This document shows positions 15,314 to 58,435 of a stretch of 64,000 nt of DNA, one piece after another. The position numbers were made by a program, and so were the translations under genes. The notes under the pieces are model-generated. The model saw only the letters and a list, made by a program, of their open reading frames with translations. It made no database searches and was not told where the DNA came from. Location: contig CAWFJJ010000001.1 in assembly GCA_963816185.1 (NCBI GenBank), positions 256,001-320,000 on the forward strand, written 5' to 3'. Within the stretch, counting starts at the first letter, position 1. The number at the start of each line of letters is the position of its first letter. Source of the DNA: Thermoanaerobaculia bacterium. Lineage in GTDB: Bacteria; Acidobacteriota; Thermoanaerobaculia; UBA5066.

Positions 15314-16649
15314 GTGAAGCCGGATGTCGTCGTCGTGGGAGGGGGCGCGGCGGGCCTTCTCGCGGCGCTGGCGGCGGCGCGCGGCGGCCGGCGTGTCCTC
15401 GTGCTCGAGGCGGCGAAGGACGCCGGCCGGAAGATCCTCGTGTCCGGCGGCGGCCGCTGCAACGTCCTCCCGATGGAGGACGCGCCCCAACGCTTCGTCT
15501 CCGAGTCGCCGAACCGCCTCGTGCGCCGCTTCCTCGACCGGTGGCCGCTTTCAGGCCAACGCTCGTTCTTCGAGGAACTTCTCGGGGGGAAGCTCCGAGA
15601 GGAGCCCGAGACCCGGAAGCTCTTCCCGCCCTCGAACCGCGCGAAGGACGTGCGCGACGCGCTGTGCGAGGCGCTGGCGGCCGCGGGAGGGACGCTGCGC
15701 GCGGCGGCGAGAGTGCGTCGACCTCGTGCGCGCGGGCGAGGGCTTTTCCTTTCGCCTCGACGGAGACGAGGAGATCGCCGCGCCGCGCGTGATCCTCGCG
15801 ACCGGCGGGCGCTCCGTCCTCGCGGGGGGAGCGGACGCGGCGGGTTACGCGTGGGCCGCCGCGATGGGCCATACGGTCCGGCCGACGTACCCGGCGCTCG
15901 TGCCTCTCACGGGCGACGCGCCGGCCCATCACGCGCTCGCGGGCGTCTCGGTCGCGGCGCGTGTTACCGCGCAGAGCGAGAAAGAGCGTGCGACGTCGAG
16001 CGGCGGCTTCCTCTTCACGCACAAGGGCTGGAGCGGCCCTGCGGTCCTCGACGTCGCGCACGTCGTCGAACGCGCCGCGCTCGCGGGAGCGAGCGCCGAA
16101 GTCCGGGTCTGCTTCGGATTCGGAGAAGGACGAAGAAAGGAGGAAGACGAAGAGAAGATTTCTTTGAATCGTCCCGTGCAGGGGGGAACGGCCTCTTCAT
16201 CCGGCCGGGCCGACACAGCCGCAAGGTGGGATGCCGCCCTACGCAGCGGCGGGGTTTCCTGCGGCTCCCTCTCTCTTTCTTCCTTTCTAAGCAAATCTTC
16301 TTCTTCTCTTCCCGACCGTCTGGTCCGCCTGATCCTCGAAACAGCACGGGTCCCGGATGTCCGACTCTCTTATCTTTCGCGCGAAGCGCGCTTGCGCGTC
16401 GTGGAAACGCTGACCGCGTTTCCGCTCCCCGCGACGGGGACCGAGGGCTATCGCACGGCGGAGGTGACCGGGGGCGGTGTCGCTCTCGAGGAGGTGGACC
16501 CCGGAAGCGGGCGCAGCCGGCTCGTGCCGGGCCTTTTTCTCGCGGGCGAGATCCTCGATGCCTTCGGCCCGATCGGTGGCTTCAACTTCCAGTGGGCATG
16601 GGCGACCGGCCGCACCGCCGGCGAAGCCGTGGCGCGCGCCGGAATCTAG
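15314..16649 (+). CDS. HI0933/YhiN/BaiN-family flavoprotein, frameshifted near 15715, with low-complexity insertion
   Basis: GGGAAG, GRKILVSGGGRCN, LATGG, LFTHKGWSGPAVL, AEVTGGGV, GPIGGFNFQWAW. Confidence 0.88.
16118..16312. repeat. Purine-tract inverted pair, locus A (inside flavoprotein gene)
   Basis: GAAGAGAAGATTTCTTTGAA (16149-16168) versus TTTCTAAGCAAATCTTCTTCTTCTC (16284-16308). Confidence 0.65.
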
Positions 16650-17320
16650 ATCTTGGCCCCGTCCCACCAGCTCGAGAGATGCGCCGTGGGCGTTCCCGGG
16701 GCTCCCCGCGCGTAATGGGAGACGTCGTTGAAAAGAGTCAGGCGGGCGTGGGAGGAGTCCTTGAAGTCGAGGGCGTTCAGGCACGCGGGACTCTGGTCGA
16801 GGCGGTCGCGATAGAAGCGCGGGTCGAAGCCGACGAGGACCGAGATCAGGAGGCGAATCGTGGCCTTGTGCGAGACGACGAGGAACGAGCGACCGGTCTG
16901 CGCGGAAACGAGAGAGAACAGCGCGGGAAGCGCGCGCGCCGTGACCGCGAGCCCGCTTTCGCCGCCCTCCGGCGCGAACGTGTACGGGTCCGAGTCCCAG
17001 CGCGCGTACTCTTCTGGCCACAGCGCCTCGACCTCGCGGCGCGTCTTCGTCTCCCAGCGGCCGTGTGAGATCTCCCGGAGAGCCGGGACGGGGACGACCG
17101 GGAGTCCGTGCGGCCCGGCGAGGATGCCGGCGCTCTCGAGCGTGCGGCGCATCGGGCTCGCGTAAATCGCGCAGAGAGGCTCGTGCGCGAGGCGGTCGGC
17201 GAGCTGGCGAAGCTGCGCGCGCCCCGAATCCGAGAGATCCACGTCCGTCTCCCCCGCGAAGCGGTCCTCGGCCGAGAGCGTCGTGGCCCCGTGCCGGACG
17301 AGATAAACGCGCGTCGCCAT
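16646..17320 (-). CDS. Histidine phosphatase (phosphoglycerate mutase-like)
   Basis: LVRHG, SPMRR, LREISHGRWE, GGES, VSH motifs. Confidence 0.88.
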   Translation of the reverse strand: MATRVYLVRHGATTLSAEDRFAGETDVDLSDSGRAQLRQLADRLAHEPLCAIYASPMRRTLESAGILAGPHGLPVVPVPALREISHGRWETKTRREVEALWPEEYARWDSDPYTFAPEGGESGLAVTARALPALFSLVSAQTGRSFLVVSHKATIRLLISVLVGFDPRFYRDRLDQSPACLNALDFKDSSHARLTLFNDVSHYARGAPGTPTAHLSSWWDGAKI

Positions 17321-17325
17321 TCGGG

Positions 17326-17676
17326 TCAGCCTTTCACCGAGAGATTCTTAGAAGGAAGAAGAACACGGAGGCGCTCGCGCCACTCGCCTTGAAGCTCGAT
17401 CGTGGCGCCCACGACCGAGCCGCCAGTGCCGAGGGACTTCTTGAGTTCCTTCGCTAATCCTTCTAAGAAATCCGAATTCTCCGGAAGTCCGTAGAGAACC
17501 GTCACCGTCTTGCCGCTCCGCCCCTTTTTTTCGATCCGCAGCCTGACGACGACCTTCGAAGGGATCTCTTCCTCCGCCTTCGAGGAACATCTGCATTGAT
17601 CCGAGGGCCAGCCGCATGTAGCGCAGACGCGCCCGACGGCCGTGGAATAGACGAGCCGGACAGGGTCCTGCCTCAC
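17326..17676 (-). CDS. yciH: SUI1-family translation initiation factor
   Basis: RLVYST, CxxC, KGRSGKTVT, LAKELKKSLGTGGSV, IELQG. Confidence 0.85.
   Translation of the reverse strand: MRQDPVRLVYSTAVGRVCATCGWPSDQCRCSSKAEEEIPSKVVVRLRIEKKGRSGKTVTVLYGLPENSDFLEGLAKELKKSLGTGGSVVGATIELQGEWRERLRVLLPSKNLSVKG
17341..17475. repeat. Purine-tract inverted pair, locus B (inside yciH)
   Basis: TTCTTAGAAGGA (17345-17356) and its exact reverse complement TCCTTCTAAGAA (17458-17469). Confidence 0.7.
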
Positions 17677-17695
17677 GGTCTCAGGATAATGCCCT
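17677..17695. promoter_or_regulatory. Bidirectional leaderless promoter between yciH and arfB
   Basis: GATAAT (17685-17690) 5 nt before arfB ATG; TATCCT on the minus strand 6 nt before yciH GTG; 19-bp gap with no RBS. Confidence 0.55.
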
Positions 17696-18127
17696 ATGGC
17701 CGATCCGATCCCGGTCGCCCCGGGGGTGACGATTCCGGCGGCCGCGCTCGAGACGCGGCAGGTTCGGGCGTCGGGACCGGGTGGGCAGAACGTGAACAAG
17801 GTGGCGTCCCGCGTGGAGCTGCTCGTGGACGCGGCCCTGATCGAGGGTCTGGACTCCGCCGCGCGCCTTCGCCTCTTCGCGCTTGCCGGCAAGAGGCGGG
17901 CGGCCGACGGGCGGCTTCGCCTCGTGGCCCAGGAGAGCCGCGATCGGCACCGGAATCTGGAAACCGCCCGGAAGCGCGCCCGGGATCTCGTGAGGCGGGC
18001 CCTTCACGTGCCCGCTGTGCGACGGCCCACGGGGCCTTCCCGCGGCGCCCGGGAGGCGCGTCTCAGGGAGAAAACACGGGAAAGCCGTCTCAAGGCGGCC
18101 CGCCGACCGGTCGGGGCCGACGAATAG
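17696..18127 (+). CDS. arfB: Alternative ribosome-rescue peptidyl-tRNA hydrolase
   Basis: RASGPGGQNVNKVAS (GGQ) and basic C-terminal tail. Confidence 0.92.
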   Translation: MADPIPVAPGVTIPAAALETRQVRASGPGGQNVNKVASRVELLVDAALIEGLDSAARLRLFALAGKRRAADGRLRLVAQESRDRHRNLETARKRARDLVRRALHVPAVRRPTGPSRGAREARLREKTRESRLKAARRPVGADE

Positions 18128-18213
18128 CGCATCTGAACTACTGCAAGTCGCAGTTCCGGGGCCCATCGTTCACGTTGGCGGGCCATGGGGCGTCTGCCGA
18201 GGAGGATTCGACT

Positions 18214-19551
18214 ATGTCATCCAGTGCACCGCGGCAGTCTGTGACCGTCACCGACAACCGCACCGGGAAAACGATCGAGGTTCCGATCCAGAACGGCACG
18301 ATCAAAGCTCTCGACCTTCGGGTCCTGAAGACCTCTCCGGAGGACTTCGGCCTGATGACGTACGACCCCGCGTTCATGAACACGGCCTCGTGCAAGAGCA
18401 AGATCACGTTCATCGACGGCGACAAGGGCATCCTCGAGTATCGCGGATACCCGATTGCCGAGCTGGCCGAGAAGACGACGTACCTCGAGACGGCGTATCT
18501 CGTCCTCAACGGAGAGCTGCCGACCAAGCAGCAGCACACCGACTGGGTGAAGGACGTCACCTACCACACGATGGTCCACGAGAACATCAAGGACCTGATG
18601 GCGGCGTTCCGGTATGACGCGCACCCGATGGGCATGCTCGCCTCCACGGTCGCGGCGCTGTCCACGTTCTACCCGGAGTCCAAGGAAGTTCGTTCGCCCG
18701 AGACCCGGAAGCAGCAGATCGTGCGCCTGGTCGCGAAGATGCCGACCCTGGCCGCCTTCGCCTACCGCCATTCGATCGGCTTCCCGTACGCGTACCCGGA
18801 CAACGACCTCTCGTACACGGGGAACTTCCTGCAGATGATGTACCGCGCGGCCGAGCCGAAATACCGGCCGAACCCGGTCCTCGAGCGGGCGCTCGAAGTC
18901 CTCTTCATCCTCCACGCCGACCACGAGCAGAACTGCTCGACGAACGCCATGCGTGCGGTCGGCTCCTCGGAAGCCGATCCGTATTGCTCGGCAGCCGGCG
19001 CGATCTCGGCCCTCTACGGCCCGCTGCACGGCGGGGCGAACGAGGCGGTCCTGCGCATGCTGTTCGAGATCGGCTCGAAGGCGAACATCCCGGCCTTCAT
19101 CAAGGCGGTCAAGGAGAGCGGCGGCGAGACGCGCCTCATGGGCTTCGGCCACCGCGTCTACAAGAACTACGACCCGCGCGCGAAGGTCATCAAGAACATG
19201 GCCGAGCAGGTCTTCGAGGTCACCGGCCGCAACCCGCTCCTCGACATCGCGCTCGAGCTCGAGCGGATCGCCCTCCAGGACGAGTACTTCCTCAAACGGA
19301 AGCTCTATCCGAACGTGGACTTCTACTCCGGCCTCATCTACCAGGCCATGAAGTTCCCCGTCGACATGTTCCCGGTCCTCTTCGCGATCCCGCGCATGTC
19401 CGGCTGGCTCGCCCAGTGGAACGAGATGATGGGGGACAAGGAGCAGAAGATCGCCCGCCCGCGCCAGGTCTTCCTCGGCGAACGCGAGCGCCACTTCATC
19501 CCGTTCGAGAAGCGGGAAGTCAAGACGGAGGGCGTGCTCACGACGGCGTAA
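18214..19551 (+). CDS. gltA: Citrate synthase
   Basis: [53 protein letters not shown]; GAGGAGG RBS. Confidence 0.97.
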
Positions 19552-19954
19552 TCGGCAAGCGCGTGATCGGGGACGGGCGCCGCTTCTCGTCCACGTTCAC
19601 GTAGACGACCTCGGCCTCGGTCACCTTCACGGTTTCGTCCGTCTTCTGCCAGCGCTCGGCGGTGACGACGACCTTGATGGTGATCGAGGTTCGGCCGATG
19701 CGGGCGACGGTCGTGTAAAAGCTCACGATGTCGCCCACGTAGACGGGGGCATGGAAGACGACTTCGTTCATCTTCACGGTGAGCACGCGGTCACAGTGCG
19801 GCCGCGTCGCGATCGCTCCCGCCTGGTCGATGTAGGCGAGGAGCACCCCGCCGAAGATCGTCCCGTGGCCGTTCGTGTCGCGCGGGAACATCGACACGCG
19901 GATCGCGGGCTGGAGGCCTGAGGAAGAAGACGGAGCGCCGGTCTCGGAGTCCAT
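19538..19954 (-). CDS. Acyl-CoA thioesterase (hotdog fold, YciA-like)
   Basis: [24 protein letters not shown]. Confidence 0.88.
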
Positions 19955-19984
19955 GGCCGGATTATGGCGGGCTAAGATCCCTTC

Positions 19985-22179
19985 ATGCCTCCCGCGAGAA
20001 ACGGCCTCTTCCTGGGCCGGGCCGTCGACCCGGCTTCGGGAAAGACCGGCGCCGAGCCTTTCCTCCTCGACCCCGCCGACCTCACGACGCACGGCCTCAT
20101 CGTAGGCATGACGGGGAGCGGCAAGACGGCGCTCGGCATCGTCCTGATCGAGGAGCTGCTCTTGCGCGGCATCCCGGTCCTCGCGATCGACCCGAAAGGG
20201 GACCTCGGCAACCTGCTCCTCGACTTTCCGGGCCTTTCGCCCGCGGAGTTCGCGCCCTTCGTCGACCCGTCCGCCGGGACGCCCGAGTCCGAGGCGAAGA
20301 AGTGGTCGGAGGGCCTCGCGGGCTGGGGACTCCATCCCGCGGACGTCCGGGCGCTCGTCGACAGCCGGGACGCCGTGATCTTCACGCCCGGTTCGACGTC
20401 GGGAACGCCGGTCGACCTCTTCGGATCCTGTGCGCCTCCGCCGAAGGAGGCCGACGACGAGGACCGCCGGGACGTCGTCACGGCCTTCGTGGGAGGGCTT
20501 CTCACCCTCGCGGGCCGCGACGCGGATCCCGTGAAATCGCGCGACTTCATCTTCCTGTCGCTCTGCGTGACCGCGCTCTGGGAGAAGGGCGCAACCGCGA
20601 CGTTCGAGTCGCTTCTCGAGCTTGCGGCCTCGCCGCCTTTCGCGAAGGTCGGCGTGCTGCCCCTCGAGACGTTCTATCCCGCGAAGGAGCGGCAAGATCT
20701 CGTCCTCGCGGTCAATGCCCTCCTCGCATCGCCCGCGACGTCTGCGTTCCGCGAAGGGGAGCCGCTCGACGTCGGGCGGATGCTGGCTCCGACGCCGGCC
20801 GGCGGGAAAGCGCGGCTTTCGATCGTTTCGATCGCGCACCTCGGCGACGCCGAGCGAATCTTCGTCGTGGCGACGCTCCTTGCGCGCGTGAAAGCCTGGA
20901 TGCGCTCGCTGCCGGGCAGCCCCGCGCTCCGGGCGCTCGTCTACGTGGACGAGATCTTCGGGTTCTTCCCGCCCTCGGCCGAGCCGCCCACGAAAAGGCC
21001 GCTCCTCACGCTTCTCAAGCAGGCGCGAGCGTTCGGGGTGGGAGTCGCCCTCGCCTCGCAGAACCCCGTCGACCTCGACTACCGCGGCCTCGCGAACTGC
21101 GGCTGCTGGTGGATGGGCACGCTTCAGACCGAGCGGGACAAGCTGCGCCTCTCCGAGGGGCTCGTGGAAGCCGGCGGCACGGACGCCTCGGAGCTCCTGA
21201 CCAGGACGCGGAAGCGCGTCTTTCTCCTGAACGACGTGCACCGCAAGGAGCCCGCGCTCGTCGAGACGCGCTGGGCGATGAGCTATCTCCGCGGGCCGAT
21301 GACGAAGGCCGACCTCACGAGGCTGAAGGGTGCCGGCGGCGAGGCGACCGCGCCGCCGAGGAAGACCCCGGCGGAGTCGGCGGCGCCCGCCCTTTCCTCG
21401 GCTTGGCCGGTGCGATGGCTCGAGAAGCGGAATGCCGACATCGCATCCCCGTCGCTTTTCGTGAAGTATGCCGTGCGCTTCCATTCGGGTACGTCGTCTG
21501 CGCCGGAGATCACCGCCGCAAAGCTTTTCCCCCTCACAGCGGGGTCCCCCGCGGAAGTGCTGGAGACCGAACCCTCGACCTCGAGCCCTCCGGCCTGGAG
21601 TCGCTGAGAGCCGCCGCACCCGGCCGGCCGCTGCGATATGCGGACCTGCCCGCATGGCTCGGCGAAGGAACGGTGAAGGCCGTCGAAAAGGCGGTGCGAT
21701 CGCGGCTCCCCGACAAGCTCGCAACGACGCTCCTGAAGGATCCCGTCACGGGCGCGCTCTCCTCTCCGGGCGAATCGCCCGAGGACTTCGCGAAGCGCCT
21801 CGCGACGGGCACAGAGCCGCCGGCGGCTCTTCGCGAGAAGCTCGAGAAGAAGCGCCGCGATCTCGCGGCGGCCGAGGCCTCCGAGCAGGGGAGATCGATG
21901 GAGACTCTCGCGACAGGCGCCGCGGCGGCTTGGGACGTCGTCGGGGGGATTTTCTTTGGAAGAAAGAGAACGCTGCGCGTCTCGAAAGTCAGCTCGGTTC
22001 TGACGAAGAAACGGCTCGAGGACGCCGCGGACGCCAAAGTCTCAGGTCTTCGCGCCGAGGTCGCCTCGTTGGAGGAGAAGGTGGCTCCGCCGGACACGAG
22101 TCGCTTCGAGAAGGTGAACGTCGTCCCGGCCGCAGCACACGTGGACGTGCTGTCGATCGGAATAGCCTGGATCTGTTAA
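19985..22179 (+). CDS. HerA/FtsK-superfamily P-loop ATPase (DUF87/DUF853-like), frameshifted near 21573
   Basis: [47 protein letters not shown]; coiled-coil C-terminus continues in the frame ending 22179. Confidence 0.85.
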
Positions 22180-22318
22180 GAGAAGAGTAAGAAAGATTTC
22201 TTAGAAGGTAATAGGGCTGGGGCAGCGCCGCCCTTGCCGCGAGGCGCCTGCCCTGCCCGAGAACGCATTCACTTTCTAAGAAACTCTTATCTTCGGTCTC
22301 TTTCTCTAGAATCCTCCC
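22176..22318. repeat. Purine-tract inverted pair with GC-rich inner hairpin, locus C (intergenic)
   Basis: TTTCTTAGAAGGT (22197-22209) versus ACTTTCTAAGAAA (22271-22283); inner GGGCAG-CGCC...GGCG-CCTGCCC. Confidence 0.7.
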
Positions 22319-22690
22319 ATGCCCAAGATACCTCCCCGGAAGGAAGTGCTTGAGCACCCGCTCTACCGCGCGGCCATGGCCGCGCAGCACCTCGCCTATC
22401 AGCTCATGCGCGAGGTGCCGCCCGAGCACAAGGCCGCCGCGACGCGGCTGCACGCGTCGCTCGTCCACGCCACGACGTATGCAGCCTACGCGGTCGACCC
22501 GGACGTGCCCGACAAGGAGGCGCAGCGGGCGGGCCTCGCCGCGACCGCGGCCCGGGCGAAGGAGCAGCTCCAGCCGCTCGCCCAGTTCGCCGGCGACGCG
22601 CGCGACGTGGAGAAGCTGAGCGAAAAGATCAGCGAGCTGTCTTCGGCAGGGGAAAAGGGGCTCATTCCTCCCTCTTCGTCCCCAGGATGA
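22319..22690 (+). CDS. Small all-helical protein, four-helix-bundle-like
   Basis: PLYRAAMAAQHLAYQLMREVPPEH...TRLHAS pattern resembles degenerate 23S-IVP/four-helix-bundle proteins; TAGAAT 6 nt before ATG. Confidence 0.5.
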   Translation: MPKIPPRKEVLEHPLYRAAMAAQHLAYQLMREVPPEHKAAATRLHASLVHATTYAAYAVDPDVPDKEAQRAGLAATAARAKEQLQPLAQFAGDARDVEKLSEKISELSSAGEKGLIPPSSSPG

Positions 22691-23012
22691 CGAGCACGAT
22701 CAGGAGCAGGAGGACGATCAGACCGATGACGATCGTCGTCGTACGCGAAGAGCCTGCCGGCGACTCGGCTGCCGCGGCGTTCGACGTGGCGGCGGTCGCC
22801 GCCGCTGCCGTGGTCGGCTGCGGGGCCTCGCCCGTGGTGGGAGCGGCGGCCGCCGTCGAAGGAGCGCCCGTCGACGCCGCCGCGGGCGGGGCCGTCGCGG
22901 ATTCGGCGGGTTTCGGCGCGGCGGCCGTGCTGGCAGTCGACTGCGAACGGGCGGCGGACGAGACGAGGGCGAGAGCGAGGAGGAGGGCGGAGATCGCGGC
23001 GCGTGGCTTCAT
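22662..23012 (-). CDS. Small Ala/Pro/Thr-rich exported protein with C-terminal TM anchor
   Basis: Signal peptide, low-complexity spacer, IVIGLIVLLLLIVLVIL followed by KREE. Confidence 0.7.
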   Translation of the reverse strand: MKPRAAISALLLALALVSSAARSQSTASTAAAPKPAESATAPPAAASTGAPSTAAAAPTTGEAPQPTTAAAATAATSNAAAAESPAGSSRTTTIVIGLIVLLLLIVLVILGTKREE

Positions 23013-27669: not shown

Positions 27670-27809
27670 AGACACGGGAGAAGAAGAAGCTTTTCTTAGA
27701 AAGAAAGAATTCGGAGAAGAAAAAGATCTTCTTAGAAGGAAAGAGAGACAGCGGCGTGCCGAGTATTGGTTTCTTCGTGGCTCTTTCCGGGGGGCGCTCA
27801 TGGAACTGA
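27666..27809 (+). other. Purine-tract motif tandem (locus D) forming a 47-codon bridging mini-ORF between sdhC and sdhA
   Basis: TTCTTAGAA at 27693 and 27729; ATG overlaps the sdhC stop (ATGA) and the stop lies 10 nt into sdhA. Confidence 0.55.
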
Positions 27810-36622: not shown

Positions 36623-39600
36623 TCACCTCACCGGCATCGGCGGCCGCTTCGGCCTGACCGGCGGGTTCTTCTTCAGCTCCTCCATGACGATCGAAATCGC
36701 CTTCTCGAGCTGCGGGTCGTGGCCGGAGATGACGTCGGCCGGCGTCTGCTCGACCTCGACGTCGGGCGGGACGCCGACGTTCTCGACGCCGAAGCCTTCC
36801 TCCGGCGTCCAGAACCCGATGTTCGGCGCGGTGACGACGGCGCCGTCCATGAGCGTCGGGAAGCCGAGGATGCCGACGAGGCCGCCCCACGTGCGCTCGC
36901 CGACGATCGTCCCGACCTTGAAGTGCCGGAACATCCACGGCAGGAGGTCGCCGCCGGAGCCGGCCGTCTCGTCGATCAGCATGACCTTCGGCCCCTGGAT
37001 GGACGCGGTCGGCGTCTTGAGGTCCTCGCCGTAGCGCATCGCCCACCATGCGATCGGCTGGCGGGTGAGCGCCTCGATGTAGTAGTCCGCGATGCTGCCG
37101 CCGCCGTTGAACCGCTCGTCCACGATGATCGCGTCCTTGGCCGCCTGCGGGTAGAAGTAGCGCTTGAAGTACGTGAAGCCGAGGTCCGCCGTGTTCGGGA
37201 CGTAGACGTACGCGACGCGCCCGCCCGTCGCGGCGTCGACCTTTCGGAGGTTCCCTTCCACCCAGTCACGGTTGCGAAGCAGCGCCTCGTTCGCCACCGG
37301 GACGACGCTGACCGTGCGCGCGCCCTTGCCGTCCGCGGTCGGGCCGACGGTGATCTCGACGATCTTCCCGGCCGTGGCCTCGAAGCGCTCGTAGAGGTTC
37401 TCGGGCGGCGCGAGGGCCTTGCCGTTCACCGCGAGGAGGTACTCGCCCGACTTCACCTCGACGCCGGGCTCGGAGAGCGGCGCGCGCAGCTCGGGGTTCC
37501 AGTTCAGGCCGCCGAAGACTTTCTTGAAGCGGTAGCGGCCGTTCGCGACTTCGTAGTCCGCGCCGAGGAGCCCGCCCGGGACGGGCGTGACTTCGCCGAA
37601 CGAGTCGCCCGGCGTGATCCGGTGGTGGCCGACGGAGAGCTCGCTGCACATCCACTGGATGACGCGGTTGAGGTCGGTGCGCGACGAAAGGTACGGAAGG
37701 AAGGCGGCGTACTTCGCCTTCATGGCCTTCCAGTCGACGCCGTGCATCTTCGGGTCGTAGAAGAAGTCGCGGTTGACGCGCCAGGCCTCGTCGAAGATCT
37801 CGGGCCACTCGGCACGAGGATCGACGCGCACGGCGATCGCGTCGAGGTTGAGCTTGCCGCCCGCGCCTTCCTTCGGCTTGCCGTCCGGACCCTCCTTCGG
37901 GTCGGCCTTCTTCGGGGACGACGGGACGATGAACCACGAGTCCTTCCGCGGCGCCCCGTTCTGAGTCTTCTCCTTCTGCTTGAAGAGAATCTTCTTGCCG
38001 TCGAAGGAGACGAGGTAGTCGTCGGCCTCGGGGACGATCGTCTCGGTCTTGCGGTCCTTGAAGTCGAAGCGCTGGACGGACGTCTTTCCGTCGGCGGCGC
38101 GCTGGAAGAAGACCTGGCCCGCGCTGCCGGCCTGGAGGTTCGAGATCTCGGCGGGGTGGACCGGGAGGTCGACGATGCGGAGATTGAAACCGTCGCGGTC
38201 GATCACGACGGGCTCGGGCTTCTTCGGGGCTTGGCCTTCCAGCTGCGGCATTCGTGTCGCCGTCCTTGGAATCGGCGGGACGGTCGCCTTTGCTCCTTTC
38301 GAAGAATCTTCTTCTTTCTTCTACTTCCGTCTTCGCGCCGTCTCGCCCTTCTCCTCGTCGCTCTCTTTCGCGAGCGGCGAAGGCGTGCCCTTCTTCAGCG
38401 TGGCGACGTAGATCGCGTTCGTGATGCGGGAGTCGGTGCTCTGCAGGGAGAACCAGCGTGCGCTGCGGTCCGGCGTCGGTCGAGGCGAGGAAGTAGAGGA
38501 ATTTGCCGTCCCGGTCGAAGGCGGGGTCCGAGACGTCCGAAAGGCCGTCCGTGAGCGCGTACGACTTGTCCTCGCCCACGGAGTAGACGAACGCGGTGCG
38601 GATGTACGTGGGGCCCGAGAGCGTGTAAGCCACCCAGCGCGAGTCGGGCGACCACGTGCCGCGGAGCCGCCGCGTCTCTTCCGGTCCGTAGCGGCTCTCA
38701 GCCGCGATCTTCTTCGAGGCGCCGCTCGCGAGGTCCACGATCCACAGTGTCAGGGAGTTGTCGGTGAGGACGATCTTCTTTCCGTCGGGCGAGAAGACGA
38801 GGTCGTCGTAGAAACCCGAGCCCGGGACCTTGATCTTCCTCGGCGCGCCCCTGCCGTCCTGCGTGCGCACGACGAGCTCGTTCTCGCCGCTCTCGTCGGA
38901 GACGTAGGCGATCTCCTTGCCGTCCGGCGACCAGGCGGGCGCGCGCTCGTGCGCGGCGGTCGTCTCCGTGAGGTTGCGGGGATCGCCCTTTTCGGCCGGA
39001 ACGGTCACGATCTCGCCCCGGAACTCGAACGCGGCGCGCGCGCCGGAGGGGGAGAGGGCGGCGCCGCGGATCCACTTCGCGCCTTTCGCCCAGCGCGGGC
39101 GCGTCTCGAGAAGGTCGCCCGCGACCGTGATGGCAAGGTCGGTCGTCTTCTTCGAGGCGAGGTCGAGAAGGTGGAGCGTGCCCGCCTGCTCGTAGACGAT
39201 GCGTCCCGCCGCCGCCGCCGCGTTGAGGACGGGGAAGTCCTTGAGGTCGGTCAGGCGCTCGAGCGACTTCGACTTTGCGTCGTAGGCATAGACGTTGAAC
39301 TCGCCGTCGCGGTCGGAGCGCAGATAGAGAGCCCCGCCGATCCACATCGGGTCCACGTCGTTGCAACGCGTCGCGGGCTGGGGAATGCGGTTGATCGCGT
39401 GCGTCGCGACGTCGAAGAGCCACACCTTCGAGACGAGCCCGCCGCGGTAGCGCTTCCACTGCAGGTGCGCCGGGTTGTTCGGGTTGTAGGCGATCGTCTT
39501 TCCGTCGGGCGAGTAGGCGGCGCGGCTGGCGTACGGGATCGGGAGGGCGGTCTCGAGCCCGCCCTCCACGGGCACCGTGTAGAGCTGCGTGTGCCGGTTG

Positions 39601-52223: not shown

Positions 52224-52405
52224 ACGCCCTCCAAATCGATAAGAGGATCTACTACGTCAAGTGGTGGATCAAGAGGTGCAAACGCATCACAGAGCGATTC
52301 GTTGCCTAACTGCGCGCTGTCTAAGCGCTCTCTTTCCAGGGAGGTTCGGTCGTGTCACGACTGAGACGTTTCCAGGAGGAGAGAGCGTGACGACCTCTCG
52401 CCCGG

Positions 52406-53065: not shown

Positions 53066-53073
53066 AGCTTTCC

Positions 53074-53313
53074 TCAGGTCGAAGGTGGAGGGGTCCCTTC
53101 GGCGGGCGGAGCCGCGACGGCGGGTTTCGGGGCCGGAGGCGCGGCTGCCGGACCTGGAGATGCCGGCGCCGGAGCGGGGGGCTCGCCGTTCGGGAACGCC
53201 TCCGCGTTGCAGAAGTAGCATTTCACCTTCGGCTGAGTTGCGGCTTCCGGTACCCAGTAGAAGAAGCACTTCCCGCACGTAGGACACGTGAACAACTGCC
53301 TTCCGCCCTTCAT
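53074..53313 (-). CDS. Small zinc-ribbon protein with Pro/Ala-rich tail
   Basis: CPTC...CYFC; ATG overlaps the upstream stop (ATGA). Confidence 0.65.
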   Translation of the reverse strand: MKGGRQLFTCPTCGKCFFYWVPEAATQPKVKCYFCNAEAFPNGEPPAPAPASPGPAAAPPAPKPAVAAPPAEGTPPPST

Positions 53314-54209
53314 CGTGAGGGAGGATACGCGCCCGGAAGCTTTCGTGCGCTCCGGAGGACGAGAAGGACGAGAAGAACGGCCAGGGTGACGGTGGAGAGC
53401 GCCGAGCCTTCGGGGCCGAAGGCTCCTCCGCTCAGGGCCGGCAGGCCCGCGCCGTGGATTCCTGTTTCGAGGGCTGGCCTTCCCATCATCATCCCGCTCA
53501 CGGGGAGAGCGAGGGCGGCGAGACTGAAATTCCAGACCGCGTGGAACGCCCACGGGCCGAGGAGGCCGCCGGTGCTCCAATAGAGCCAGCCCAGCAGGGC
53601 GCCCGCAAGACCAATGTTGACGAGCGCGAGGGGCGTCACGTTCGGGTTCATCGCGTGCATCGAGGCGAACGCCCCGGACTGGCCCGCGTTCGCGAGTAGC
53701 CCGCAAAAGAGCCAGCGCCGCGCGGCGGCGCGCTCCCGAAGGGGCTCGCTCATTCCCGAAAGCTTGCCGAAGAGGAGGCGCGCAAGAAGAAGGAGCAGAG
53801 CCGCGAGGAGCGTGAGGAGGAAGGCGCGGAAAAGAAGCTCTTCGGCCAGGCTCTGCAGCACGAAAAAACCGAAGGAGGCGGGAGCCGACGCGAGCGACGG
53901 CGGACCGGGGGCAGGAGCGAACGGCGCGTAGCCGGGGGCTCGAGGCCCGAACGCTCCCAACAGGGCGGCCGGCAGCAGGACCGCCGTCAGGAGGGCCGCG
54001 GCGGCCGCGAGCCCTGAGGCGATCCCGCGCGCGAAAGGCTCGCGTGGCTCGCGGATGGAAGCTCCGAGCCGCGCGAGGAGGCCGAAGCGGAGAACGGCGA
54101 GGCCGGCGAGGCCGAGCGGAAGGGCGAGGAAGAGGCCCGACGCGAGGCGCGCGTCGAGCCAGTTTCCCATCGCCCCCGGCACCGGTGACGCGAGGGCCGC
54201 CAGGATCAC
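53310..54209 (-). CDS. CPBP/CAAX-family intramembrane metalloprotease
   Basis: EELLFR, FASMH, HAVWN, GGAFGPEGS. Confidence 0.85.
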   Translation of the reverse strand: MILAALASPVPGAMGNWLDARLASGLFLALPLGLAGLAVLRFGLLARLGASIREPREPFARGIASGLAAAAALLTAVLLPAALLGAFGPRAPGYAPFAPAPGPPSLASAPASFGFFVLQSLAEELLFRAFLLTLLAALLLLLARLLFGKLSGMSEPLRERAAARRWLFCGLLANAGQSGAFASMHAMNPNVTPLALVNIGLAGALLGWLYWSTGGLLGPWAFHAVWNFSLAALALPVSGMMMGRPALETGIHGAGLPALSGGAFGPEGSALSTVTLAVLLVLLVLRSARKLPGAYPPSR

Positions 54210-54801
54210 TTCTTGGCGGGCGCTCCGGCCGGCTTCTTCTCCATCTCCTCTTTCATCCTCTTCTGCTGCTCGGCCGTCCACGGCGGGACGATGCCGTTCA
54301 TGCGCGCGTACGCGATGGACTGGCCGAGGTGCTCGTGCTCGTGATTCGCGGCCAGGAGAAGGACTCCCCGCACGGTCGAGTCGCTTCCGAAAAACTTCTC
54401 GGGCTTGTCGAGGTCCGCGTCGGAGAGCGAGGCGATCCCGGCGCGCACGTGCTCGAAGGACTTCTTGAGCTCGTCGATCACCTTCGATTTCTCCGTGACG
54501 TTCTTCTCCATGTCCTTGTCCAGGCCCGCGGGGGCCTTGATGCCCGCTAAACCCAGGATGAAATAGTTCGAGCCCGCGATGTGGGTGTAGACCTCGCTGA
54601 TCGAACGCACGCCCGGAGCGGGCCGCCAGCCGAACTTGTCGGCGGGCGTCGCCTCGGCGAGGCTGAGGAGCTGCTTCTCGATGTGCGCCTGCTGGGCCAG
54701 GAATTCGGCGCGGAAGCCTTTGGTCGGCGCCTGGCGCGCGCGGCAGGAGCGGCGAGGAGAGCAACGGCGAGCGAGCACGGGATGAGGTGGCCGGTTTTCA
54801 T
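54206..54801 (-). CDS. DinB-family protein with signal peptide, frameshift near 54740
   Basis: WRPAPGVRSISEVYTHIA, HEHEHLGQSIAYARMNGIVPPW. Confidence 0.82.
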
Positions 54802-54879
54802 GAAACGTCCTCCTTTCGAATTCGGTGGGCGCATCTTATCCGGCCTGCGTAGAATCCGATCGATTCCGGAGGAAATGAA

Positions 54880-55749
54880 ATGAAAAACACGCTCCGCCCC
54901 GCCCTCCTCGCCGTCCTCGCCGCCGCCGCGCCCGCGCTGGCGCAGCTCGTGACGCCGGCTCCCAGCCCGAACGCCACGATCTCGCAGACGATCGGCGTCA
55001 CGAAGGTCGAGGTCGCCTACAGCCGGCCGCACGTGAAGGGCCCGACGCGCAAGGAAGAGCGCGTGATCTGGGGCTCTCTCGTGCCGTACGACAAGGTCTG
55101 GCGGACCGGCGCGAACGCGGTCACGAAAATCACGCTCGACGGCGACGTGGAGGTCGAAGGGCAGAAGCTCGCGGCGGGGGCCTACGGTCTCTTCACGATT
55201 CCGGGCAAGTCGGACTGGACGATCATCTTCAACAAGCAGGCGACGGGCTCGCCGTTCGACTACAGCGCCGACAAGGACGTCCTGCGCGTGAAGGTGAAAC
55301 CCGAGGCTGCCGGGATGCACGAGCAGTTCACGATCGACTTCCCGCTCGTGAGCGCGGACGCCGCGACGCTCGCCCTCGTGTGGGAGAAGCTCGAGGTTCC
55401 GGTGCATCTCACCGTCGATACGAAGGGGCAGTTCCTCGCGAAAGCAAAGGAAGCCGTCGCGAAGGCGAAGGCCGACGACTGGCGGACGCCGCTCACCGCG
55501 GCGCGCTACCTCTACGACAACAAGTACGCCCTCACGGACGCTTTCGCATTCCTCGACAAGTCGCTCGCGATCAAGGAAACTTTCGCGAATCTTTCCCTGA
55601 GGGCGAACGTACTGGGCGACATCGGGAAGAAGAAGGACGCGGTCGTGGTTGCCGAGAAGGCGATCGCTCTGGGCAAGGCTGCCGAGCAGAAGCCCTCGCC
55701 CGAGGCGCTCGCCGCCCTGGAGAAGAAGATCGCGGAATGGAAGAAATAG
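54880..55749 (+). CDS. DUF2911-domain secreted protein with TPR-like tail
   Basis: PSP, YSRP, LVPYDKVWRTGAN, GAYGLFTIP. Confidence 0.85.
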   Translation: MKNTLRPALLAVLAAAAPALAQLVTPAPSPNATISQTIGVTKVEVAYSRPHVKGPTRKEERVIWGSLVPYDKVWRTGANAVTKITLDGDVEVEGQKLAAGAYGLFTIPGKSDWTIIFNKQATGSPFDYSADKDVLRVKVKPEAAGMHEQFTIDFPLVSADAATLALVWEKLEVPVHLTVDTKGQFLAKAKEAVAKAKADDWRTPLTAARYLYDNKYALTDAFAFLDKSLAIKETFANLSLRANVLGDIGKKKDAVVVAEKAIALGKAAEQKPSPEALAALEKKIAEWKK

Positions 55750-55758
55750 GGAGGGTTC

Positions 55759-58435
55759 TCAGCGCGCCGGCGGGGACGGAACCGTCGCTTTGAGCCGCAC
55801 CCCCGCCCCCGCTGAGACGAGGTTCACGAAGAAGCGGTACGCGCCGGGGACGCCGGCCGGAAGCTGGCGGAAGAAGGCGTATCCGGTATAGACGAACGCT
55901 CCTTTCCCATACCTTGCGAACAGGACGCCGCCGGGCTTGTCGTTCTCGCCCGGATCGTGCGTCTCGATCACCGTCTCGTATCGGGGGTCCCAGGTTCCGG
56001 GGAAGTAGAGGCCGCGCTCCTGCACCCACCCGTCGAAGTCGGCCGCCGTCAGCCTGTTGGGAAAGACGAGGAGGGAGCTCGAGGGATTCAGGAATTTCAC
56101 GGGAGCTTCCTCGACGGTGACGCGGTCTCGAGAGATCTTGAAGGGGTACGGCCCGAGCTGCTCCGTGACGAGGTCTCCTCCCAGAGTGTTGTACTGCGCC
56201 ACGAGCGTGCCGCCCTTCTCGACGTAGTCGAGGAGCCGCGACTCGGCCAGCTTCAGGCGCGGGCGCGTGTTGTAGGCGCGGATCCCCGTCACGATCGCGG
56301 CGTAGCGCGAGAGGTCGCCGTTCTCGAGCTCGTCGTCCGAGAGGAGCGTCACCGTGTAGCCCATCTGGCGGAGCGCGTCGGGGACCTCGTCGCCCGAGCC
56401 CATGACGTAGCCGACCGGAGCCTGGGGCGCCTTCACGTCGAGGCGCAGAACCTTCGCTTCGGCGGGGGGGAACAGGGTCTGAAGAGGGATGTGCGGGTAG
56501 TCGACGTGGACGAGGCCGCGCGAATAGACCTTCCCGCCCACGACGGCTTCGGCCGTGAGCGTGGCCGCGGACGCCCCGGCCGGCGGGGTCACGGTGAACA
56601 CGACCGGCTTCTCCTCGCCGCGGCCCGTGAACGCGAACAGCACCTCGGCGGGCGACGCCGAGAACCCCGCCTCCGTCTTCAGGCGCAGGCCGCCCGAGAC
56701 AGCGGCGCCGCTCGTGAGCGTGACGCGCACCTTCTTCGGTTTCTCGGTAGGGAACGCGTAGACCTTCTCGTCGAGCGTGGCCATGACCGGCGGCGTGATG
56801 ACGAATGGCTCGTAGATCTCTCCCTTGACCCGGTCCGTGCGACGAAAGACGACGGGCGCCTCGAACGGGATTGCGACCCCGTCGACGCGCACCGTGAAGC
56901 GCGCGACGAGCGGCGCCGGATTCTCCGGCAGGCCGATGAGCGCCGGGTCTTTCACCGTGAAGAGGCCCTTTCCGGGCCGCTCCCTGAGCCAGTACGGCTG
57001 CGTCGTCTCGACGTCGCCGGGGAGCGTCAGCGCGATCTCGCGGCGCAGCGGCTCGTTCTGCGCGAGGGCGCCGCCCTGTCCCGGCGCCCGGGCGTACGTC
57101 ACCGAGACCGACTCGAGCGACGCCTGCCGTGGCGAGCGGTTCAGGATCATCGTGGCGACCTTCACGCTCGCGCCCGGCGCGGCGGAGGGCTCGCTCGCGA
57201 CTGCTTCGACCCAGATGCCGAGGCACGCGCGGATCGCGTCGGCGATGTCGCGGCGCTTCCGCGCCAGGAGAGGATCCATTTGCTTCGGACCCGTGCTTTG
57301 TCCTGCTGACGGTTGCGCAGGGGGAGAAGAAGAGGAAGACGAAGATCTCTTAGAAGGGGAAGAGGGAAGACCCGCTCCGCTCTTGTCGGCGGCGGCGCGG
57401 TCGACGAGCGCGTAGGCGGCGGCGAGGTCCGCCACCGAGGCCTCGGGATGCAGCGGCTGGAATCCCTCTTCCGCCTTTCTAAGCAATTTCTGAATCTCTT
57501 CTCCTCCTGGTCCCATCCTCTTCCACGACAGATCGATGCCCTCGAAGAGATCCTTTTCCGCCGGCGCGCCTGCGACGACCTTGAAGTCGTTCAGCCAGGT
57601 GCCGCGGCGCTCGGCCGAGCCGAAGCCCTGGCTCTTGTGCATGGACCGGCTCAGCGCGGCGATCTCCGTGTACGAGCGCCCCAGAAGCGCGTTGTAGGCG
57701 CCGAGGTCCGCCGTGATCTGCCCCGGCGCGTCCTTGCGCGGCGAGTCGCTGCCGAAACGGAAGACGTTCCAGAGAAGCCGCTTCGGCTGCCACGGCGTCA
57801 GCGTGTCGAGCTGCTCGGGGAATCGCGACGGGTCGCCCGCGGCCTTGAACGCCTCCACGGCCAGGATCGCCGAGGCCGTGTGGTGGCCGTGGCCGCCCTC
57901 GCCGGTCGTCGGGAAGCGCGTGACGATCACGTCCGGGCCGGAACGTGCGGATGACGCGGACGGTGTCCGCGAGCACCTGCTCCTTCCCCCAGATCCGGAG
58001 CGTCTCCTCCGGGCCTTTCGAATAGCCGAAGTCGACCGCGCGGGAGAAGAATTGCTTGGCGCCGTCCAGGCGGCGTGCCGCGAGGAGCTCCTGCGTGCGC
58101 AGGACGCCCATGAGCTCGCCCGACTCGGTGCCGATGAGGTTCTGGCCTCCGTCGCCGCGCGTCATCGACAGGTAGCCCGCGTCCACGAGCTTCTCGCGCG
58201 AGGCCCACGCGAGGAACGCCGTGTTCTCGTCGTCCGGGTGGGCCGCGACGTAGAGCACGCCGCCGACGACGTTCAGCTTCGCGAGCGCGAGCCGGATCTC
58301 GGCGGCATTCGGCGTCTCGGTGGGCATCGCGGCGCGCCGCACGGGCACGTCGGTCGCGGACACCGCGAAAGCCGCGAGGAGCGCGAGGACGAGGAGGACG
58401 GCGGCCGGACGGCGGGAAAGGAGGCGTGGCGTCAT
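55759..58435 (-). CDS. PIG-L/LmbE-family deacetylase with C-terminal GATase-like domain, frameshift near 57935
   Basis: AAHPDDE, TRGDGGQN, DFGYSK, HGHH, SMHKSQGFG, RVTVE, WVQERG, FRQLPAGVPGAYR. Confidence 0.88.
57321..57525. repeat. Purine-tract inverted pair, locus F (inside PIG-L gene)
   Basis: CTTAGAAGGGGAAGAGGGA (57349-57367) versus TCCCTCTTCCGCCTTTCTAAG (57463-57483). Confidence 0.72.

Follow-up and report, generated by a model that had tools for sequence, protein, structure and literature searches.

How does one short word come to stand in pairs of facing copies within unrelated genes and spacers of a bacterial chromosome? The question is raised by the window analysed here, a stretch of 64,000 nucleotides from an uncultured soil bacterium (Acidobacteriota, class Thermoanaerobaculia). 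The original prediction had listed nine exact copies of CTTAGAA, and all nine are in place, on the forward strand at 17347, 22200, 27695, 27731 and 57349 and on the reverse strand at 16285, 17461, 22274 and 57477. Its estimate was one or two copies by chance; 100 dinucleotide-preserving shuffles of the window gave a mean of 1.12 and a maximum of 5, with none of the 100 reaching nine. CTTAGAA is the core portion of a recognition motif of about 30 nt, in which an outer purine-rich flank is followed by the core ATTTCTT[A/C]GAAGG and then by an inner flank, GGTGAAGAGGG; the core holds the quasi-palindromes TTCT-N-AGAA or CTTCGAAG. A 32-nt weight matrix finds 13 sites in the window and accepts the near-variants reported at 16162 and 38298 as true members. 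Among the 13 are a single forward arm, GATTTTCTTTGGAAGAAAG, at 21951..21962 (+, score 21.7), which had been missed before, and a weak site in yciH at 17577..17588 (-), whose score of 15.3 lies at the matrix threshold and which may be a chance match.

The genome-wide k-mer count that had been proposed as a check gives different answers for the short word and the long one. CTTAGAA occurs 449 times, with 137 copies expected from base composition and 344 from a maximal-order Markov model, so the signal resides in a longer word. There the enrichment is strong: 149 copies of TTTCTTAGAAGG were found against 0.065 expected, 905 sites with a matrix score of at least 16 against 33 expected in a third-order Markov simulation, and 591 strict sites against 6.5 expected. 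At the less strict matrix threshold the 5.09-Mb genome holds about 940 sites (942), or about one per 5.4 kb; at a score of 15.3, roughly 5–10% false positives are expected. Some 25 bits of information per site are kept at roughly 900 places. The window is unexceptional, its 13 sites being the mean density of its own contig. To call the tracts foreign to the window was misleading, as the motif is the genome's own most over-represented 11-mer family. The purine tract ascribed to every copy is present at only part of them: the upstream 25 nt are at least 80% purine in 151 of the 591 strict sites.

An assembly artefact had been named as a possible refutation. The motif is not one, because the 13-mer is present in all 24 genus genomes searched (10–110 copies) and in none of the 16 sister-family genomes, while the reversed 13-mer, used as a control, scored 0 in all genomes. 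The C-variant of the core is also found in 24 of 24 genus genomes (28–108 copies), with 0–3 copies in other genomes, and the ratio of the A to the C variant shifts by species, from 80 A and 66 C in genome G000 to 10 A and 45 C in G024.

The four forward-then-reverse pairs described in the window are real, and the histogram of orientation and spacing extends them to the whole genome. Neighbours less than 500 bp apart comprise 305 convergent, 34 divergent and 127 tandem arrangements (chi-square against 1:1:2, p 4e-90); 610 of the 942 sites belong to convergent pairs and about 35% are unpaired. The pairs are head-to-head, with the purine flank outward, and neighbours within ORFs are likewise biased (79 convergent against 7 divergent). 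The commonest spacing is 73–77 bp, the same mode being seen in a second species (G019).

Were the arms overwritten onto their hosts, as had been proposed? The hosts themselves were named correctly: arms lie within an HI0933-like flavoprotein gene, yciH/SUI1 and a PIG-L-family gene, and the loci at 22.2 kb and 27.7 kb fall between genes. For yciH and the PIG-L-family gene the term is apt, for ortholog alignments show arms that overlie conserved coding sequence by substitution, with the length constant. At the 3' end of yciH, a minus-strand gene, the first arm (17336..17375, +, core 17344-17355, score 28.9) encodes LLPSKNLS; its length is unchanged from the outgroup, and other genus clades have a TTCGAAGAA variant at the same codons. 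The second arm, within the yciH/SUI1 core (17440..17480, -, core 17459-17470, score 27.7), encodes DFLEGL in rare AT-ending codons. The AT-shifted synonymous sites of yciH are confined to the arms and to the genus: the arms of 20 genus orthologs have a third-position A+T of 0.57 and the remainder of the segment one of 0.16 (p 2e-42), as against 0.23 and 0.19 among 7 outgroup orthologs (p 0.34). In the long PIG-L-family gene, also on the minus strand, one arm (57323..57375, +, core 57346-57357, score 29.5) encodes SPSKRSSSSSSS and is followed by an S/P-rich tract of variable length among 12 genus orthologs. The other (57455..57510, -, core 57475-57486, score 26.0) encodes QKLLRKAEEGF, and its core stands at nucleotide offset 445 in 10 of the 12 orthologs with no indel; the sequence between the two arms is conserved coding DNA. 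The arms of this gene thus keep to the same codons in 10 of 12 genus genomes. Another pair falls within a single Acyltransferase domain match, in which 140 residues lie on 131 profile positions. The reverse arm of the flavoprotein gene (16262..16312, -, core 12-mer 16283-16294, score 34.0) translates as SSFLSKSSS and has an outer pyrimidine tract. All 19 genus orthologs examined have a comparable peptide here (SSFLSKSS, NLLRKSS and others), which amounts to the outgroup SLLRGE plus a few residues at most.

The term does not suit the first arm of the flavoprotein gene or the two intergenic loci, where arms accompany triplet-tract expansion or indels. In the flavoprotein gene the forward arm (16118..16180, +, score 16.6), a GAR-rich tract followed by a core 12-mer at 16159-16170 with the T-variant CTTTGAA, falls within the barrel/H2TH domain. 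It comes with an insertion that varies from 0 to about 60 residues among genus orthologs, being absent in G023, G024, G017 and G013 and duplicated in G012. The 22.2-kb locus has a forward arm directly past the upstream stop codon (22170..22215, +, core 22197-22208, score 35.8) and a reverse arm in the leader of a gene that begins at 22319 (22262..22310, -, core 22272-22283, score 30.5). Here the pair as a whole is polymorphic in the genus, as an indel: of 20 orthologous spacers, 12 are armless (0–27 nt), 2 have one arm, 1 is degenerate, 4 have the pair and 1 is complex, and the centres differ among orthologs. At 27.7 kb, two forward arms stand in tandem at a distance of 36 nt (27677..27750, +, cores 27692-27703 and 27728-27739, scores 31.0 and 34.0), with GAR tracts, in the sdhC-sdhA spacer. 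The two closest relatives, with 89% identity in SdhA, lack this 130-nt spacer, and their sdhC stop overlaps the sdhA start. An aspartokinase gene presents a similar case, its AA_kinase domain match having about 58 extra residues at the position of a pair. The true insertions at 22.2 kb, at 27.7 kb and in the aspartokinase are left unexplained by a purely substitution-written picture.

These insertions and that in the flavoprotein gene, together with the low-complexity peptides beside many in-ORF arms, are what one would expect of a mobile palindromic element, MITE- or REP-like, that inserts anywhere, in-frame genic sites included, and then decays. Rickettsia palindromic elements enter genes in frame, each as a complete copy whose interior is conserved, and like the motif they are palindromic repeats that leave the reading frame of protein-coding genes intact. 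The motif differs from them in that its interiors are unrelated and several arms lie on ancestral codons with no length added. By blastn, recurrence elsewhere is limited to arms of 20–41 nt and the interiors are never shared from copy to copy. This bears out the original observation that the DNA between the arms is unrelated from locus to locus and includes conserved protein core, and with it the argument that the motif is not a simple inserted element. The elements have no sharp termini and no target duplication was seen; the information spans about -10 to +20 around the core and decays gradually, with nothing at the dyad. The flanks of partner arms are no more similar than those of random arms. 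Single arms occur at the orthologous 22.2-kb spacer, arm positions are common to species with 65–89% protein identity, and the yciH, PIG-L-family and acyltransferase arms keep to conserved codons at constant length. A Y1/RAYT transposase was not found in the 94.9%-complete genome, a search that matched in 6 of 14 control genomes. The REP/BIME repeats served by RAYT are, like the motif, abundant, short, lineage-specific and often in inverted pairs. REPs are described as extragenic 20–40-bp palindromes with a conserved end tetranucleotide (PMC3733652); a single arm of the motif forms no stem-loop, and most of its sites are in ORFs. We therefore regard a mobile origin as improbable. Rather than being copied from a mobile element, the sites arise and persist in place by substitution, in coding and non-coding DNA alike, and their gain is aided by triplet slippage in GAR tracts and by local indels.

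It is worth asking whether the paired arms act in RNA, as a long hairpin serving as a terminator, mRNA stabiliser, RNase III or Rho site or, with a core complementary to the 16S 3' end, a ribosome-binding decoy. The arms pair with each other in 83–97% of predicted minimum-energy folds, either strand reads as a 5' purine tract leading to a 3' pyrimidine tract, intergenic elements are often 15–50 nt from gene ends, and CTTAGAAAGGAGG is present at the end of the 16S gene. However, partner arms show no compensatory covariation, their variable core positions assorting randomly (p 0.22–0.99), and the DNA between them is of ordinary G+C and folds no more than expected (median z -0.3 to -0.7, computed for the 122 of 154 pairs of at most 170 nt). 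No Rfam family matches the window, and convergent genes have no excess of pairs between them (11 of 75, baseline 199 of 1762). Half of the pairs lie in translated ORFs, in both orientations, and most sites are far from start codons. A role in RNA is thus quite improbable in our judgement.

The same arms could be the inverted repeats of segments flipped by one master recombinase. Invertons have been described with such an arrangement, inverted arms of one consensus around segments of variable length in intergenic and intragenic locations (10.1101/2023.03.11.532203). A recombinase would count convergent and divergent arms alike as inverted, yet here convergent neighbours far exceed divergent ones. 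In about half of the pairs the partners have different bases at the centre of the core, a mismatch that would impede strand exchange, and flipping would wreck the conserved, essential protein cores of yciH, the kinases and the acyltransferase. Coding orientation is kept in every ortholog examined (23 for yciH, 12 for the PIG-L-family gene, 19 for the flavoprotein), and four public runs, examined as contigs, which hide rare forms, gave no strand-changing joints at the loci. Invertible segments are accordingly a very improbable account of the pairs. Taken together, recurrence of the arms only, the lack of covariation and of a RAYT gene, the ends without sharp termini and the arms laid down by substitution argue that the motif is not a MITE, a REP, a terminator or a Chi-like site.

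The distribution of sites over the genome brings another known system into view. By a crude home-made gene caller, 596 of 942 sites (63%) are in ORFs, with a concentration in ORFs of low score, of which some may be false; even so, 302 lie at least 30 nt inside ORFs scoring at least 100. The predicted independence of frame and strand holds, each of the six frame/orientation classes having 36–78 of 367 in-ORF sites. Sites are scarcest where codon bias is strong, near the origin and on contigs of odd composition. Their density falls from 3.42 to 0.11 per 10 kb across quintiles of codon bias, it is 4–9 times lower on the dnaA-bearing contig, in coding and intergenic DNA alike, and it is clumped, and small, odd contigs are nearly devoid of them. 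Single sites have no bias by replication strand (131 against 119).

In most genomic respects this resembles the uptake sequences of Pasteurellaceae (USS) and Neisseriaceae (DUS), and the motif could be one of these, with a competence receptor that prefers motif DNA and transformation that drives motif-creating point mutations through resident DNA. As the published accounts describe them (PMC2817400; 10.1101/2025.10.24.684340), uptake sequences have hundreds to thousands of lineage-specific copies in dialects, on both strands, genic and intergenic; they arise through point mutations at positions that tolerate change and are little conserved, are missing from newly acquired genes and may form inverted pairs. 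The motif likewise has two co-existing core dialects whose ratio varies between species, equal use of the strands, gain at tolerant codons and few sites in codon-biased genes. Its share in ORFs is near the 65% reported for H. influenzae, and its near-absence from odd small contigs recalls the report that uptake sequences are lacking from genes that have no homologs in relatives (both from PMC2817400). ComEC is present, but it carries little weight, being found in 10 of 14 controls and common to most bacteria. Unlike USS and DUS, the unit of the motif is the convergent pair, its arms preferably about 75 bp apart, which holds two thirds of the sites, also within genes, and is not a terminator. 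In Neisseriaceae and Pasteurellaceae, inverted-repeat uptake sequences are described as mostly in terminators (10.1101/2025.10.24.684340); here the inter-arm DNA is not hairpin-like and pairs occur in all intergenic classes roughly as baseline. The motif is also longer (about 30 nt), has a variable triplet-repeat flank and varies 5–6-fold in density between chromosome regions. The low density on the dnaA-bearing contig and the clumping count against uptake too. An uptake function is unlikely, though a serious candidate.

The explanation we prefer, and hold tentatively at somewhat less than even confidence, is that the motif is a genus-specific family of putative protein-recognition sites that evolve in place, after the manner of DNA uptake sequences, but are arranged as bridged pairs. 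A paired signal built in place, in genes and spacers alike, points to a putative reader protein, and paired binding is favoured because the arms are independent and the spacing is preferred. Other genome-wide oligomers take shape in place within genes, each for one reader protein, and are unevenly spread between regions: Chi, KOPS, matS, Noc and SlmA sites. The motif has these habits too, with a putative reader; it differs from this group in being paired and in lacking replication-strand polarity, and its sites are far more numerous than those of matS, Noc or SlmA. As we picture it, a sequence-specific DNA-binding protein, common to this one uncultured genus, would read the 30-bp site, perhaps as a dimer on each quasi-palindromic core, and two bound arms would be bridged so that the intervening 60–150 bp are looped or wrapped. 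The sites might be maintained by weak selection for binding or by a transmission bias created by the reader, and the bridging may serve nucleoid architecture, the marking of resident DNA or recombination. A search for the reader found none: most genomes, genus and outgroup alike, have two ParB_N genes, with no extra ParB/Noc paralog in the genus, and none of 41 genomes gave a histone-fold gene.

Looping predicts helical phasing of the spacing. The phasing seen is weak (best period 9.5 bp, family-wise p 0.029, a signal inflated by kinase paralogs that share an identical 92-bp spacing), which counts against looping, as the 35% of unpaired sites count against a paired arrangement. In favour of evolution in place, 26 of the 38 tandem spacings of at most 60 nt are multiples of 3. 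The remaining site in the window is a single reverse arm of the C-variant, CCTTTCGAAGAA (38296..38345, -, score 28.9), with an outer pyrimidine tract, about 45 nt upstream of the minus-strand gene at 36623-38251.

All nine copies of CTTAGAA or its complement on which the original prediction was built were recovered in the window with coordinates in exact agreement, and its low estimate of chance copies was borne out: 100 dinucleotide-preserving shuffles of the window gave a mean of 1.12 and a maximum of 5. The expected polarity was also seen, with a second, reverse-complement copy 75-130 nt downstream of the forward copy at four loci. When the five window loci (a flavoprotein gene, yciH/SUI1, the loci at 22.2 kb and 27.7 kb, and a PIG-L-family gene) are compared by eye, a longer, oriented site emerges around CTTAGAA, in which a stretch of GAR triplets (often purine-rich) is followed by GATTT-CTTAGAA-GG and then by (T)GAAGAGGG. 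The same consensus was obtained by aligning all 449 copies of the 7-mer in G000, the genome that holds the window at C1:256001-320000 (5.09 Mb in 30 contigs, 67% G+C). The genome-wide enrichment proposed for the 7-mer itself stood only in part: 449 copies exceed the 137 expected from composition, but a maximal-order Markov model already accounts for 344, which places the enrichment in a longer word. TTTCTTAGAAGG occurs 149 times against 0.065 expected, or 265 times against 2.5 with one mismatch, the main variants being TTTCTTCGAAGG, TTTCTTAGAAAG and TTTCTTCGAATG. A strict pattern finds 591 sites against 6.5 expected. With a 32-nt weight matrix, 905 sites score at least 16 bits, compared with 33 by third-order Markov simulation, and 942 score at least 15 bits. 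The shuffles and the strict-pattern and matrix counts together reject a chance origin.

Motif words are the top over-represented 11-mers of the genome, bar one homopolymer run, and the window, with its 13 matrix sites, has the mean density of its contig. The information spans about 30 nt per arm with gradual edges and none at the dyad; a single arm is only a 9-bp quasi-palindrome inside an asymmetric 30-nt site. A strongly purine-rich outer flank accompanies only 151 of the 591 strict sites, and 240 of the 1,685 purine tracts in the genome adjoin a strict core. A search of the literature, outside supplementary files, for the motif strings and for comparable elements found no published description.

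The motif belongs to one lineage. ATTTCTTAGAAGG was found in 24 of the 24 searched genomes of the same genus, at 10-110 copies each, and in none of 16 outgroup genomes from two sister families (0/14 when the unpublished G025 and G030 are left aside), related genomes of this kind not being independent samples; a reversed control pattern had no copy in any genome searched. The C-variant, one of the two forms of the core 13-mer, likewise has 28-108 copies in every one of the 24 genus genomes and 0-3 in the others, and the ratio of A- to C-variants differs between species, from 80:66 in G000 to 10:45 in G024. The nearest named relatives of the SdhA encoded in the window are Acidobacteriota / Thermoanaerobaculia MAGs, at 89% identity. 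The concern attached to the original prediction, that the tracts might be assembly artefacts, can be dismissed because the motif is found in all of these independent genus assemblies, and public contigs of run X1 cover the yciH arms (window 17112-17650) with 0-2 differences. A nearby segment, window 18900-19450, attracts a pile-up of metagenome and metatranscriptome contigs from related organisms, with many joints and loose ends; this indicates a very conserved gene segment, unrelated to the motif.

How the sites came to lie in genes can be read from orthologs. In yciH/SUI1, 20 gap-free genus orthologs and seven outgroup orthologs all span 54 residues from GLP to the stop codon; 23 genus orthologs were printed, and the other three vary in length, but at places other than arm 1. 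Over the residues D-F-L-E-G-L, arm 1 reads gat-ttc-tta-gaa-ggt-tta where the outgroup has ttc-ctc-gag and similar codons, and arm 2 reads, by clade, cct-tct-aag-aat or ctt-cga-aga-atc (the C-variant). Third-position A+T in the genus is 0.57 in the arms against 0.16 elsewhere (p 2e-42); the outgroup values are 0.23 and 0.19 (p 0.34). On this comparison of sequences, it was substitution that made the yciH arms, and they are held in place. In the PIG-L-family gene, both arms are present in 10 of 12 genus orthologs; counted in nucleotides, the offset of arm 1 is constant and free of indels, an S/P-rich tract of variable length comes after arm 2, and the DNA between them is conserved coding sequence, as had been proposed. 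An acyltransferase elsewhere in the genome carries a pair within a single domain match, 140 residues on 131 profile positions.

Other loci have grown. The reverse arm of the HI0933-like flavoprotein encodes SSFLSKSSS over the outgroup SLLRGE with little added length, and a similar peptide occupies this position in all 19 genus orthologs printed; the forward arm is accompanied by an insert whose length varies from 0 to about 60 residues, and four genus genomes lack this arm while one has it twice. At the intergenic locus at 22.2 kb, 20 genus spacers could be anchored (five further loci have no anchor). Twelve are armless and 0-27 nt long, four hold pairs whose centres differ in sequence, except for one centre common to G000 and its relative G003, and the rest comprise one with a reverse arm only, one with a forward arm only, one degenerate and one complex. 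Presence of the element does not follow relatedness, as G007 and G011, 90% identical in the neighbouring gene, are without it. At 27.7 kb the window has a 130-nt spacer with two tandem arms, while in the two nearest relatives the sdhC stop overlaps the sdhA start. An AA_kinase domain likewise has about 58 extra residues at the place of a pair. The statement that the motif is not a simple insert therefore has to be divided: insertion is found at 22.2 kb, at 27.7 kb and at arm 1 of the flavoprotein, and no length was added in yciH, in arm 1 of the PIG-L-family gene or in the acyltransferase. Two modes thus occur: arms are laid over existing sequence by substitution, and loci grow locally through insertion or slippage.

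Some features of these loci are worth recording in their own right. A leader, TTTCTCTAGAATCC(C/T)NCCA, at window 22296-22318, directly before the ATG at 22319, is conserved in most genus genomes and contains a motif-like TTCT..AGAA palindrome. The Pfam match of the flavoprotein (window 15314-16649) is split: the frame of 15314 gives residues 4-137 and that of 15324-16649 the remainder, which indicates a frameshift near 15700-15730, either a sequencing error or a pseudogene. The PIG-L-family gene (window 55759-58435, minus strand) changes frame near 57930, where ...VIRTFRP is followed by DVIVTRF...; in each of 16 genus genomes its ortholog is one uninterrupted frame of 858-906 residues, and the open frame in G000 has 800.

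The relation of the sites to genes was surveyed with a crude home-made codon-usage caller (4,240 ORFs over 87% of the genome), which serves as a guide only. By these calls, 596 of the 942 sites lie in ORFs and 346 outside, or 1.34 versus 5.34 per 10 kb, and 302 sit 30 nt or deeper within ORFs that score at least 100. The in-ORF sites are spread evenly along genes and use all six frame and orientation classes, with 36-78 of 367 sites in each, in keeping with the predicted independence of frame and strand. Their density drops as codon score rises, from 3.42 per 10 kb in the lowest quintile to 0.11 in the highest, a trend that is partly circular; some ORFs of the lowest quintile may also be false. 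Among 154 strict pairs, 77 lie within one ORF, 43 are intergenic and 34 lie across a gene end. At the end of the 16S rRNA gene (G000:C1 near 445558), the complement of the 3' end reads CTTAGAAAGGAGGTGATCC, so that the motif core and the complement of the gene's final bases are the same; this could be coincidence or a link to ribosome binding. A Shine-Dalgarno role was rejected despite the complementarity, since the bulk of the sites lie well away from starts and half of them are antisense.

Neighbouring sites within 500 bp are convergent in 305 cases, tandem in 127 and divergent in 34 (chi-square against 1:1:2, p 4e-90), which extends the predicted orientation bias to the whole genome; 610 of the 942 sites belong to convergent pairs, and inside ORFs there are 79 convergent pairs against 7 divergent ones. 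The suspected spacing preference is present as well, with a start-to-start peak at 73-77 bp and a tail beyond 300 bp, and the same mode is visible in a second genus genome, G019. Distances of 72-90 bp are also common between tandem neighbours, so that there are short arrays with an approximate period of 75 bp. The spacing of close tandem arms is a multiple of three in 26 of 38 cases (p 1.5e-5), which points to slippage of the GAR tract. Phasing of the spacing to the helical repeat, which a paired operator or nucleoid-protein site would have, is at most suggested: a 9.5-bp periodicity has a family-wise p of 0.029 and is exaggerated by kinase paralogs that share one 92-bp spacing. In five kinase paralogs a pair surrounds the conserved RFEREA...HPNI segment. 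Tandem arrays of Ser/Thr kinase paralogs (G000:C24:613431-622894; also G020:C19 and G015:C28) have a pair 92 bp apart at the same place of each kinase domain (EEFFEGEE ... SFEEI), and inflate some counts.

The two arms of a pair are otherwise independent. Forward and reverse variants assort randomly at four variable core positions (p 0.22, 0.52, 0.76 and 0.99), and the flanks of partners match no better than those of randomly re-paired arms, with 4.14 against 4.20±0.12 matches for inner flanks and 6.07 against 6.25±0.17 for outer flanks. These results argue against selection for base pairing, whether in RNA or in a cruciform, against co-inherited terminal repeats and against copying from arm to arm; neither hairpin covariation nor template copying between partners was found. 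Such independence fits a reader that recognizes each arm separately.

The DNA between the arms bears on several known classes of element. It differs in all 36 pairs printed, and has ordinary G+C and no excess folding (median z -0.3 to -0.7 in the 122 of 154 pairs that are 170 nt or shorter). An intrinsic terminator consists of a stable G+C-rich hairpin and a T run downstream of a gene. This identity was rejected on the folding values, on the half of pairs inside ORFs and on the intergenic pairs, which occur in all four neighbourhood classes (ES 27, SE 24, SS 13, EE 11) near the baseline of 603, 499, 461 and 199. A search of the 64-kb window against Rfam, on both strands at gathering score, gave no match. 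MITEs and Rickettsia-type palindromic elements have a conserved interior, defined termini and usually a target-site duplication. Here blastn with four window elements returned only arm matches of 20-41 nt elsewhere, and the lack of shared interiors, sharp ends and partner similarity speaks against such elements. REP/BIME units are RAYT-associated (Y1 transposase), extragenic, imperfect palindromes of 20-40 bp, whereas the motif lies mostly in ORFs and its single arms are not stem-loops; PF01797, the Y1 (RAYT) transposase, has no match in G000 (94.9% complete) and matches in 6 of 14 control genomes, and this class too was rejected. An inverton would be a segment found in both orientations within a population. 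The yciH, flavoprotein and PIG-L-family orthologs are all in one orientation, and strand-changing joints at motif loci were absent from the covered parts of four public runs, whose short, low-depth contigs drop rare forms. Mobile-element, inverton and RNA readings are the weaker ones.

A motif of about 25 bits in about 900 places requires a common reader and a directional pressure, as the same codons are kept across species at 65-89% protein identity; the argument is the stronger because rare AT-ending codons occur only in the arms and only in the genus. The independent arms, the quasi-palindromic core, the strict head-to-head rule and the preferred spacing lead us to suggest a putative protein that binds each arm and bridges the two, a tentative reading to which we give somewhat less than an even chance. 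Neither a ParB/Noc paralog nor a histone distinguishes the genus: most genus and outgroup genomes have two ParB_N genes with no extra paralog, and the bacterial histone PF00808, sought as a wrapping protein, has no match in 41 genomes, so both were rejected as reader. In a bolder version of this reading, a protein complex specific to the genus would recognize two 30-bp sites placed head to head at a distance of about 75 bp; biased repair or recombination where it is bound, or a fitness effect of bridging, would drive the writing of sites; and substitution together with triplet expansion would place these in resident DNA, conserved coding sequence included. The outcome would be a paired "self" mark that newly acquired DNA lacks. 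That the motif represents such a new genome-wide system, a complex with paired sites that writes its own recognition sites into resident DNA as a mark of self, is more speculative, and we consider it somewhat unlikely.

The density of sites along the chromosome is uneven. Among large contigs it ranges from 0.53 per 10 kb (C29) to about 3.1 (C28 and C21), and coding and intergenic densities vary together. C29 has the tetranucleotide make-up of the rest of the genome (r 0.9986) and carries dnaA (112441-112926), parB (120842-121114) and a GC-skew switch, so the origin region is the poorest in sites, against 2-3 per 10 kb elsewhere; in a genome of 30 contigs this gives a partial picture of the distribution relative to ori and ter. 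In G019, no 13-mer site lies in the 214-kb stretch around dnaA (C2 around 838918), and sites are sparse over about 0.9 Mb on just one side of dnaA. Chi/KOPS-type sequences are skewed in orientation with the direction of replication; this polarity is absent, as 131 single sites lie on the G-rich strand versus 119 (p 0.49) and the paired sites divide 234 to 233. Contigs below 60 kb (342 kb in total) hold 37 sites, and most of them, including the low-G+C C2, C10, C12, C18 and C26, have no strict-pattern site. C10, a contig of 15.6 kb and 61.8% G+C that may be foreign to the organism, contains a run of 1,028 T directly followed by 65 A (G000:C10:1147-2239), probably an assembly artefact.

A DNA uptake sequence, a motif for which competent cells prefer the DNA that bears it through a specific receptor, is a further reading. 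To our knowledge, uptake sequences, which are known from two proteobacterial families, are the only well-studied motif of at least 10 bases kept in hundreds of in-gene places by point mutation. The present motif resembles them in being lineage-specific and over-represented, on both strands, in and outside genes, and in evolving by point mutation; ComEC is found in G000, a presence that does not discriminate. It also shares with uptake sequences its lineage dialects, its gain where codons tolerate change and its rarity on odd contigs (PMC2817400). However, the inverted uptake sequences of Neisseriaceae and Pasteurellaceae lie mostly in terminators, according to a recent report (10.1101/2025.10.24.684340), which leaves the in-gene pairs unexplained, and on balance we think it unlikely that the motif is an uptake sequence. 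What the uncultured Acidobacteriota genus presents is an uptake-type genomic imprint together with a rule that uptake does not explain, that of facing pairs at a preferred spacing. If the binding protein of the preferred reading were found, it would offer a new handle on chromosome organization or self-recognition in a major soil phylum and, given the rare codons and low-complexity inserts in housekeeping enzymes, a clean example of DNA-level pressure reshaping proteins.

In any case, the motif marks the genus sharply, which is useful for binning and for recognizing foreign DNA. Its elements also join adjacent genes into long open frames and so mislead gene callers. At G000:C28:31503-34766, asd, aspartokinase and dapB form one open frame of 1,087 residues with motif pairs inside; this is a true fusion, or else adjacent genes have run together through elements that are free of stop codons. 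A second family of over-represented words in the genome, AATTCCCATTG and CAATGGGAATT, each with 40 copies or some 100 times the expectation, seems to have no relation to this motif.
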